This document shows, one piece after another, positions 15,001 through 18,000 of a stretch of DNA of 64,000 nt. Position numbers: made by a program. Numbering within the stretch: the stretch's first letter is position 1; every line of letters starts with the position of its first letter. The stretch is taken from NCBI GenBank assembly GCA_965113315.1, contig OZ220372.1; one strand, 5' to 3'. Source of the stretch: Podarcis vaucheri. Taxonomy: Eukaryota.

Positions 15001-18000
15001 AAATAGTATAAAGTGTTTTTTTTCCTTCCTTTTCAACAGAGAAAAGGAGAGATCTACCAAATGGTAAGTGGTTTGTTTGTTTGTTTTTGCTTGCAGTAAC
15101 CATGAAGTTGTTTGATTGTTTCAACGTCGCTCACTTACTCCTAGCTTATCACTCATGAATGTAATGGCCTATCTGAACATCAGTGCATCTTTTAAAATTG
15201 TTAGTGGTTATGCTTTGATTAGCTGTGGGATTGCTTAGTGGTACTTTAAAATTGCAATGTAAACAGTACAGTAGAAGGCGAAAGCAGGAAGGCCTGAGAA
15301 TAAAGACCACTGACAACTGTGGATGTTGTAGTGGCAAACTCCTCTTCTTAGCAAATGCTGATTATGTGGGAATGACTTAGGAAGTCAGCTTTAAACCATT
15401 TGACATACTGACATTAGCTTTTCATCTGCAGAATTCACTCAGATGTTTTAGCTGCTAAGTCATGAGCCAGAATCATTTTAATTTTTGAGGGGGGATTAGA
15501 AATAGTGTTCTTCCTTTATTGGTACAAACCTCAACAGTTGTAGAATATTTTCACAAAGGTGCAATATATGATTTGTTTTAAAGTAGCTAAAAACCCACCC
15601 TATTGTTGAAGGGCTTGGTTAACATCGCAGAATAAAAATTGTAGGATTAAACAAATTGGCATTGCTGGTTATGTAAAATGCATTAGCCTGTAATTTCCTG
15701 GGATTTGTGTTTTTATTCATGTTGGTAATGGAAAAGTCTATTCAATGTTAAGGCAGTGAGCTGTAGATTTACTGACCTTCCATCATAATGGTTAGGATGA
15801 AAATGGGGATTTATCAGAATTAGTTTTAAAAGGGCTTGCCAGGAATCATGTGGCCCACTTTCATTTTAGCACATGAGCTGGAATCTGATTTAGTCTGCAG
15901 GAAGCTGCCCTCCAGCAGGCAGCAACTGAGGAATATAAAGGATTTCCACAAAACATTGCCATGTTTTGTACCACGTTTTCGGAAAACGCTTCTGAGGATG
16001 TGAAAGATGTCAACATTAGTGGATGCTTAAGACCACTATATTGTCAAGTTCTTCCAAATGACGAACTTTATAGGCCGCTTTCGTCTTCACTGATCGAGCT
16101 CTCGACAGCTGATGGGGAAGGTGCTTGTGTTATGATGGGGAAAATTTTGTTGGATATAAATATGGCAGTGTTAGAAGAAAATGGAAGTCCCTTAGAGTCA
16201 TGTGTTCCTCGTGGACAACCCAAGCCTAATGAGAGTGGTAAGCATGCTTTTCATTGGCTGGTGGTACTTATTTCTGAGCAAGCATGCTTTTGATAGCACT
16301 GCTAAAGGGGGAAAAGCAGCATTAAAAATATATGTACAAACTGAGTGGTTTTTATGTAACATGGAAAAATATTATTTCTTCTACAATTCAAACTAGTAGG
16401 CATTATCCTCCATCTATAGCATTGAAAATATAGACCTCATAATGAATATTTTGTAACAGTGGTTTTTATTTTTATTTCTGTTTAATTTTACTTGTGGAAA
16501 CCATCAATTTTTAGCTGTCTCGATACGATACCCAAAAGTCAAAATCTAATCTAATTTGCAGATTATGGTAACCAAGAATAGCAAAATTATTAGACTCTTA
16601 TTTTATTGTGACATTTCCAAGAATTAGCTTGATTATATTTATATTGATTATATTGGCTCCTAGAAATAGGCAAACATCAGGTGTGCATGAAAGGTACACA
16701 TGGATTTACTACCAACATGTATTCTAGTAGCAACTTTGCGGAATACAGTTAAGACAGCAGCTTTCTTTCTTAGCAACGCTCTAGAAAGGCATAACCCAAT
16801 TCTCACCTCTATTACAGTTTCTTTAAAATATGTGGTCTCCTAAGACCTTCTGCTACACAGAGCTGCCTCACCATGGAAGATAACTTATGTACATTATTCA
16901 ACTTGCACCATGAATTTTATAAGGATTTCTTGCACATAAGAAATAATTCTACTGGTAGGCTCACATATTTAGAAGAGTAAGAAATATTGAGTAAGAAATT
17001 ACTCAATTTCTCAAGAAATTATAAGAGTAAGAAATTCTTCTCAAACATCTTGACACTTAAAATGTAGCCACTTATTTCTGTTGTAAAATGGTATAGAAAG
17101 ATTTGTCTTAATATTTTAGAGCTAGAGCTGTCACTGTTAGAAATCTGTTAAGCGACAGTTTTTGAAATGAGATTGGGGGATGGGAATATTGGGTTGAGAT
17201 GGTAGTGGGAGTACTATTGGGTTCAAAAAAGAATCTAGTGGGGAAATGTATTTACTTTTTCTACACTTAAATGAACCGTTTTGAGAGAATAATAAATGAT
17301 ACTGATTGAAATCTTCCGGCCCTCTGTATTGTGTGAAAAAACAACAAAGATTTTCCTAGGTATCATTTTGCTTTTAAAACATTAATCTATCCTTACTCTG
17401 TAATACTTGGAGTCCAGGAAACATAAGACGGCAGACCAAATTAATTTGAATCTATTTGCACTCCTACAGGTCCAAGTCTACCAATGGCAACTGTTGACAT
17501 CAAAAATCCAGAAATCACCACTAACAGATTTTATGGCTCACAAGTCAACAACATTTCATATACCAAAGAGAAGAAAAAAGCAAAAGCAAAAAAGAAGAGG
17601 TTAACAAAGGCAGATATTGGAACTCCAAGCAACTTCCAGTAAGAGCACCGTTTCTTTTTTATAACTTTCTACAGATAGGCACAAAAATTCAATTACTACA
17701 TTTGGGAAGAAAATCAGTTTGCGAGTAATACTAAATAGGTGCCCTTTTAAATATTTTCTCCATGGTAATTTGCCATTTTGGAAAAGGTGGTATTCAGTTA
17801 AGGTAGTTTAAGATGGACCACCCTTTAGGTGTTTTTTTTTTTGGGGGGGGGGTGTTTTAAAGCCCAGGGTAGCTTACACAATAAAACAACAATACAGTAA
17901 AACTCAGTATGAAAATCCTCCAAAAGCAGGAGAAACAAAGTATGATGATGAAATCCAGCAGAGCCAACAAAGCCATCAATTAAAATTGGCAGCTGTGACG

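Follow-up and report, generated by a model that had tools for sequence, protein, structure and literature searches.

An intronic open reading frame of Podarcis vaucheri WASL as a probable alternative first exon for an N-WASP without WH1

Introduction

Few actin nucleation-promoting factors are as well studied as N-WASP, the product of WASL. Its WH1 domain binds WIP-family proteins, the WH1-WIP complex is generally regarded as the native form, and GBD-C autoinhibition of the protein is released by Cdc42, phosphatidylinositol 4,5-bisphosphate (PIP2), and SH3 adaptors. The WASL locus of the lizard Podarcis vaucheri raises the question of whether the gene can also produce an N-WASP with no WH1 domain at all. 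In 64,000 nucleotides of contig OZ220372.1 (the whole of this stretch is called the window below), WASL lies on the + strand. The 2.4-kb intron between micro-exon 5 and exon 6, flanked on the tblastn map by the WH1 exons on one side and the basic/CRIB exon on the other, contains a stop-to-stop frame of 134 codons, the longest open reading frame (ORF) between 13 and 19 kb. An earlier reading of the DNA made without database searches (the sequence-only reading) had proposed that this frame supplies an alternative first exon, in which 92 residues beginning at ATG 15961 replace WH1 and are spliced to exon 6, or else an internal cassette.

Comparison with proteins and genomic ORFs of other vertebrates favors the first of these proposals. 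Positions 15961 to 16237 are likely the coding part of an ancient WASL alternative first exon that yields a WH1-less N-WASP.

Results and Discussion

Named gene models join the peptide to exon 6

A word-indexed search for longer proteins returned a single match, the NCBI entry 'neural Wiskott-Aldrich syndrome protein isoform X3 [Varanus komodoensis]' (P0002, 449 amino acids). Residues 1 to 92 of this model align without a gap to the window translated from ATG 15961, sharing the start Met and 81 of 92 residues (11 substitutions), and the exon 6 residues GPSLPMAT follow directly after residue 92, continuing as GPSLPMATVDIKNPE. Pfam assigns PBD (141 to 199) and WH2 to the Varanus protein, without WH1. 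Exons of the window were searched singly, and analyses of a whole isoform used the Varanus database protein. Identity between the window and Varanus is 88% in the alternative exon, 89% in the polyPro/WH2 exon, and 93 to 100% in the remaining exons, with tblastn of the downstream exons giving 89 to 100% (100% of 52, 89% of 181, 94% of 36, and 95% of 22). A computed model from another species reproduces the isoform that the sequence-only reading had described, and the fish models considered below are alike. In the window itself, G 16237 is codon position 1 and is followed by GTAAGC, a phase-1 donor. Joining 16237 to 17470 (cag/GT CCA) produces GGT, a Gly codon, followed by PSLPMATV, and the fit of this donor to exon 6 proposed earlier was confirmed in the sequence.

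Searches with a profile built from the peptide and its relatives placed the same N-terminus in fishes, which we take to be teleosts. Among proteins of 448 to 2000 amino acids, 40 named matches were found (Varanus and 39 fishes), under the names WASL, waslb, wasla, or neural Wiskott-Aldrich syndrome protein and mostly as 'isoform X3', and 37 of the 40 were without Pfam WH1. Proteins of 46 to 447 amino acids gave 112 matches, of which the 6 named ones were all fish WASL. In total, 46 named models carry the N-terminus: Varanus plus 45 fish WASL/wasla/waslb. The junction G-P-x-L-x-x-A-T-[VI]-DIKNPE follows the N-terminal block in 43 of these under a strict pattern, and a looser pattern recovers it in P0040 and P0131, bringing the count to 45 of 46; the last, P0146, ends inside the exon. 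Of the 43 strict-pattern models, 30 open with the block (first residue at position 1 or 2). Both fish paralogues carry the exon, as seen in 'wasla' of Astyanax (P0072) and in many 'waslb' entries.

For example, models from Oryzias latipes (X6), Astyanax mexicanus (wasla X3), and Oncorhynchus tshawytscha, and others titled 'WASP like actin nucleation promoting factor b/a isoform X3', share with the window three conserved blocks, the initiator Met, the lack of WH1, and a first coding exon that ends in a split Gly codon joined to P-x-L-P-M-A-T. They differ from the window in having a longer exon (87 to 134 residues in fishes, median 115) and in sequence, with about 32 to 48% identity in the exon peptide. 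Most fish exons have a Gly-rich insert after block 1, and in most the donor is preceded by an Arg/Ser-rich stretch (R-R-R-R-S-R-S-A-S-P-S-P-S-K); neither feature is present in the window or in Varanus. The inserts vary in length, and the frame is kept in the sequences seen. Because the lineages of Varanus and Albula (the sole fish looked up) have Euteleostomi as their only common node in a taxonomy lookup, the exon predates the split between ray-finned fishes and tetrapods and, on this comparison of sequences, is at least as old as their common ancestor.

A different use of the same frame would be as an internal cassette: splicing from exon 5 to an acceptor that lies within the frame or 5′ of it would yield a WH1-containing N-WASP with an insert between WH1 and the basic region. 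Because micro-exon 5 is phase 1, any exon placed after it must be phase 1-1 to hold the frame, and seven AG sites within 15905 to 16121 are in the right phase. Four named fish models (P0052, P0057, P0069, and P0070) put the peptide after WH1 sequence, and P0146 does likewise. However, four of the five go under the title 'hypothetical protein' or 'unnamed protein product', P0070 has no isoform number, none is an 'isoform X', and WH1 is missing from all but three of the 40 longer named matches. The pyrimidine tracts of the in-phase acceptors are weak, reaching at most 12 of 20, and every one of the 37 aligned named isoforms has the initiator Met. The sequence-only reading had singled out an acceptor at 16109, giving a 129-nucleotide cassette (16109 to 16237); the phase of this acceptor was upheld, but the cassette built on it would lose residue blocks 1 to 12 and 22 to 37, the best-conserved parts of the peptide. 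Taken with these observations, an internal cassette is unlikely, and use as a first exon is preferred.

Conservation is at the protein level and runs from start to donor

The window encodes MFCTTF as residues 1 to 6 from ATG 15961, and ten positions (M1, F2, C3, T4, T5, F6, P10, C22, L23, and C28) are invariant in the alignment of 37 named isoforms. Over 147 non-identical family sequences, in which the count at positions 1 to 6 is biased by the choice of sequences through that motif, a block C-L-x-x-L-x-C-x-V-L-P-x-D-E-L-Y stands out at window residues 22 to 37. Of its residues, C22, L23, and C28 are invariant both in the named-isoform alignment and in a second family alignment, and the other named positions hold the same residue in 132 to 145 of the 147 sequences, except Y37 (108 of 147). 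A further block, G-K-x-L-L-D, lies at window residues 60 to 65 (L63 in 129 and L64 in 115 of 147 sequences), and the last 20 residues of the peptide are variable. The suggestion that ATG 16132 or 16135 might be the real start now looks unlikely, since residues 1 to 57 are conserved as protein.

Relatives without gene names are read-through ORFs. When the 134-residue ORF was compared exhaustively with 1.84 billion representatives by phmmer, 14 matches reached an E value of ≤1e-3, and 13 of them are short unnamed ORFs of this family; the 14th (P0008) is a repeat protein matching the tail only. Nine of the 13 start at protein residue 1 or 2, with eight aligned to the query Met (residue 25), and the other four aligned from query residues 40 to 44. 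The unnamed ORFs, which lie on at most 35 contigs each with no contig taken for human, read through the donor to lengths of 85 to 386 amino acids and keep the ATG, the frame, and the phase-1 GT donor. Relatives resemble one another from the Met as far as the donor, beyond which the read-through tails differ and terminate at different places. In 31 lizard/amniote-like relatives, the donor site reads [D/S/N]-G-K in 28 (GGT AAG; S-G-K in the window) and S-K-Y in 2 (which fits A/GTAAGT, also phase 1), with the spliced Varanus model making up the remaining one. The sequence-only reading had named conservation of frame and donor in related lizards or birds as a check, and both are kept in these lizard/amniote-like relatives. 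Fish read-through ORFs have G-M, G-R, or G-T exactly where the named isoforms have G-P.

Read-through ORFs would also be expected if ATG 15961 to the stop at 16291 encoded a separate small protein of about 110 amino acids, made from an unspliced intronic transcript and standing outside N-WASP. All unnamed relatives are of this read-through type, and one of them, P0094 (110 amino acids), which presumably derives from Podarcis vaucheri or a species very near to it, shows 99% identity to the window and shares its stop. However, genomic contigs give read-through ORFs for any exon, the tails beyond the donor differ in sequence and stop while the donor GT and its phase are kept, and 45 named models splice the exon to exon 6, all of which makes a separate small protein very unlikely.

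Conservation could also reflect a non-coding element, such as an intronic enhancer, that is open by chance, was picked up by gene predictors, and was then propagated between annotations. Such an origin would agree with the computed nature of the gene models, the unremarkable length of the ORF, and the lack of a predicted fold in the peptide (the last two are described below). It is hard to reconcile with conservation at the protein level, where invariant Cys, Leu, and Pro persist even at the identity separating the window from fishes, with fish inserts of very different length that never break the frame in the sequences seen, or with an ATG and a phase-1 GT fixed at the two ends. A non-coding element is accordingly judged highly improbable. 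Sequence comparison shows a protein-coding exon in which the start, the frame, the phase of the donor, and the location within WASL are all conserved.

Features of the open frame

The stop-free frame from 15889, ATG 15961 with its GCC context (attGCCATGt, with G at −3), and TATAAA at 15934 to 15939 are all present as the sequence-only reading stated. The in-frame TGA at 15886 to 15888 halts reading from further upstream before the ATG, which fits a separate first exon. The CpG observed/expected ratio is 0.76 in 15961 to 16237, compared with 0.15 in the upstream and 0.24 in the downstream flanking intron and 0.37 in the whole window, bearing out the local CpG retention noted earlier. The absence of a visible repeat signature likewise held, as the repeat families found within the window all miss the region, none covers the exon, and no second copy of the exon exists in the 64 kb. 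Rfam gave 0 matches on 15000 to 17700. As for the TATAAA, the word is there, but the role of TATA box assigned to it was rejected, as it lies 22 nucleotides before the conserved ATG and occurs 78 times in the window, counting both strands.

Observations that weigh against the exon

A number of results count against a functional first exon. The first concerns length, where an ORF of at least 134 codons arose in 59 of 60 shuffles of the whole window, so the frame is not significant window-wide; dinucleotide shuffling of the 2.4-kb intron gave such an ORF in 2 of 200 trials and shuffling of 10 kb of sequence in 61 of 200. The window itself contains 18 ORFs of this size. Judged this way, ORF length alone is unremarkable, and the case that the ORF is real rests on homology, not on ORF statistics. 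Such numbers would be expected if the ORF had arisen in the intron by chance or were a remnant of a pseudogene or transposable element. Against an origin of this kind stand the lack of any in-window repeat over the exon, the lack of a Pfam or Rfam match, and the fact that the sole relatives are WASL N-termini and their unspliced copies; the Varanus and fish homologues refute it in practice and leave it next to no probability.

A second set of points concerns transcription and annotation. The 500 bases before the ATG (15461 to 15960) contain 1 CpG (observed/expected, 0.06) and offer no defensible promoter signal; a promoter located there would not be of the CpG-island type. The named proteins are products of computational gene prediction. 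Among named entries with the peptide, the word-indexed and profile protein searches turned up none from birds, mammals, turtles, or amphibians, leaving Varanus as the one named amniote model with the exon. Among the unnamed ORFs examined there was no spliced form, and since an open frame is what brought these ORFs into the database, lineages with a broken frame would be invisible.

A third point is the lack of a recognizable fold in predictions for the peptide. AlphaFold2 run on the 92 residues with a 50-row alignment gave a mean predicted local distance difference test (pLDDT) score of 55.4 and one helix, at residues 55 to 74. On the full Varanus isoform (37 rows), peptide pLDDT was 35 to 48 per 10-residue block, and in the same model the GBD reached about 88 to 90 and the C helix about 87. 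Searches for a known domain were also negative: Pfam gave no family at an E value of ≤10 on 116- and 134-residue translations, the family profile matched no PDB sequence at an E value of ≤1, and the best ESM Atlas score was 0.79, under the level counted as meaningful. The peptide is thus predicted to be a mostly disordered region with three conserved short motif blocks, one of which, G-K-x-L-L-D, falls inside the only predicted helix, itself of low confidence. A complex prediction pairing Varanus residues 1 to 92 with the basic/GBD part (93 to 215) returned a score of 0.02 against a mark of 0.34, which speaks neither for nor against a contact.

Identity of the peptide with a WH2 or C helix was considered and rejected. 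Although hhalign set G-K-x-L-L-D on G-R-D-A-L-L-D of the second WH2, it did so with an E value of 0.69 and a probability of 0.07%, and the Pfam WH2 family (PF02205) gave no match even at an E value of ≤10.

Proposed isoform and its implications

Under the favored first-exon reading, a transcript would start inside the intron between micro-exon 5 and exon 6, translation would begin at ATG 15961, and the exon would be spliced at G/GTAAGC (after 16237) to exon 6 at 17470, bypassing the WH1 exons and micro-exon 5. For the Podarcis vaucheri exon we infer a promoter of its own, expression, and any function. In the product, 92 new residues would replace WH1 (exons 1 to 5), and the basic region, CRIB/GBD, proline-rich region, two WH2 motifs, and C and A regions would be retained. 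Everything from exon 6 onward would be common to this isoform and canonical N-WASP (WH1-B-GBD-polyPro-V-V-C-A), which takes its WH1 from the exons at about 9.4 to 10.8 kb plus the micro-exon, where the isoform has a WH1-less N-terminus instead.

The product is predicted not to bind WIP-family proteins via WH1 and to keep GBD-C autoinhibition, with release by Cdc42, PIP2, and SH3 adaptors, so that an activity independent of WIP yet regulated by Cdc42 and PIP2 would follow from its domain content. The conserved N-terminal motifs probably give a different targeting or regulatory input via short linear motifs; S-acylation of Cys3 is a guess. More tentatively, it is conceivable that a second N-WASP, one lacking WH1, has persisted in bony vertebrates from a time before ray-finned fishes and tetrapods separated. 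Its disordered N-terminus of 90 to 130 residues (with MFCTTF possibly S-acylated at Cys3, a short amphipathic helix, and the Cys-Leu-Pro-Asp-Glu-Leu-Tyr motif) would then be a new module for targeting or regulation, placing a Cdc42/PIP2-responsive Arp2/3 activator where WIP does not.

The exon is already part of the computed gene annotation for one lizard and many fishes, and the isoform itself appears to be unstudied. No published description of a WH1-less N-WASP isoform was found in full-text, open-access papers and preprints, although a description in a subscription journal is still possible, and 'MFCTTF' matched 0 papers among them. Passages in PMC7430845, PMC3411717, 10.1101/450619, and PMC13270420 make no mention of such an isoform. 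The zebrafish waslb study (10.1101/450619) states that its clustered regularly interspaced short palindromic repeat (CRISPR) sites were chosen 'early in the first exon'.

If the isoform is real, a WH1-less form with its own conserved peptide, present from fishes to lizards, would be a WIP-independent route to Arp2/3 activation, and it is old enough to deserve attention. Starting after exon 5, it would escape first-exon alleles, such as the waslb CRISPR alleles, and alter the reading of loss-of-function alleles; knock-outs and antibodies directed against exon 1 or WH1 would miss it as well. Since only one named amniote model carries the exon, it has probably been missed in amniote annotation and is probably absent from the gene models of many amniotes.

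Gene map and other features of the window

Coordinates are collected in Table 1. Edges of the WH1 exons are ends of high-scoring segment pairs with unverified splice sites, and exon 1 of WASL was not located.

Table 1. Positions of WASL exons, elements of the alternative first exon, and repeat copies in the window
Feature	Position	Strand	Basis or remark
Three WH1-coding exons (span 9383..10830)	~9383-9517, ~10156-10245, ~10732-10830	+	tblastn of WH1-carrying fish models (P0052, P0070)
Exon 5, constitutive 24-nucleotide micro-exon (..EKRRDLPNG)	15040-15063	+	Phase 1 at both ends; tblastn of WH1-carrying fish models
Stop-to-stop open frame, 134 codons	15889..16293	+	TGA at 15886-15888 before; stop at 16291-16293
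TATAAA	15934..15939	+	Judged incidental
Coding part of the probable alternative first exon (92 codons from the ATG and one further base, the G that opens a split Gly codon)	15961..16237	+	Varanus and fish homology; CpG observed/expected, 0.76
Splice donor GTAAGC, phase 1	16238..16243	+	Sequence; relatives keep the phase
Exon 6 (acceptor exon): GT completing the Gly codon, then PSLPMATVDIKNPE, basic stretch, start of CRIB	17470..17639	+	54/57 identical to Varanus X3 residues 93-149
Downstream constitutive exons common to both isoforms	20333..26336	+	tblastn of Varanus X3
CRIB/GBD exons	~20336-20380 and 20709-20864	+	tblastn of Varanus X3
PolyPro and two WH2 exon	~24019-24561	+	tblastn of Varanus X3
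C region exon	25411-25518	+	tblastn of Varanus X3
Acidic end exon	26271-26336	+	tblastn of Varanus X3
Interspersed repeat copies	23360-25090, 33065-33445, 36120-36445, 39748-39882, 42835-43010, 43818-43961, 54267-54710, 57288-57745		Window

The repeats are short interspersed families (D1, D3 to D6, D8, D9, D11, D14, and D16) that are 60 to 95% alike, with each copy ending in an ATT/GTT microsatellite and none overlapping the exon. Two runs of N occur in the window, one of 131 bases (26388 to 26518) just 3′ of the last WASL coding exon and one of 149 bases (52688 to 52836). The longest ORF of the window (46988 to 48517, minus strand, 510 codons) gave no Pfam family at an E value of ≤0.001. By eye, it has an acidic start, leucine-rich-repeat-like segments, a proline run, a basic stretch, and a WH2-like end, an arrangement that we take to resemble leiomodin, which is presumably a WASL neighbor in other vertebrates.

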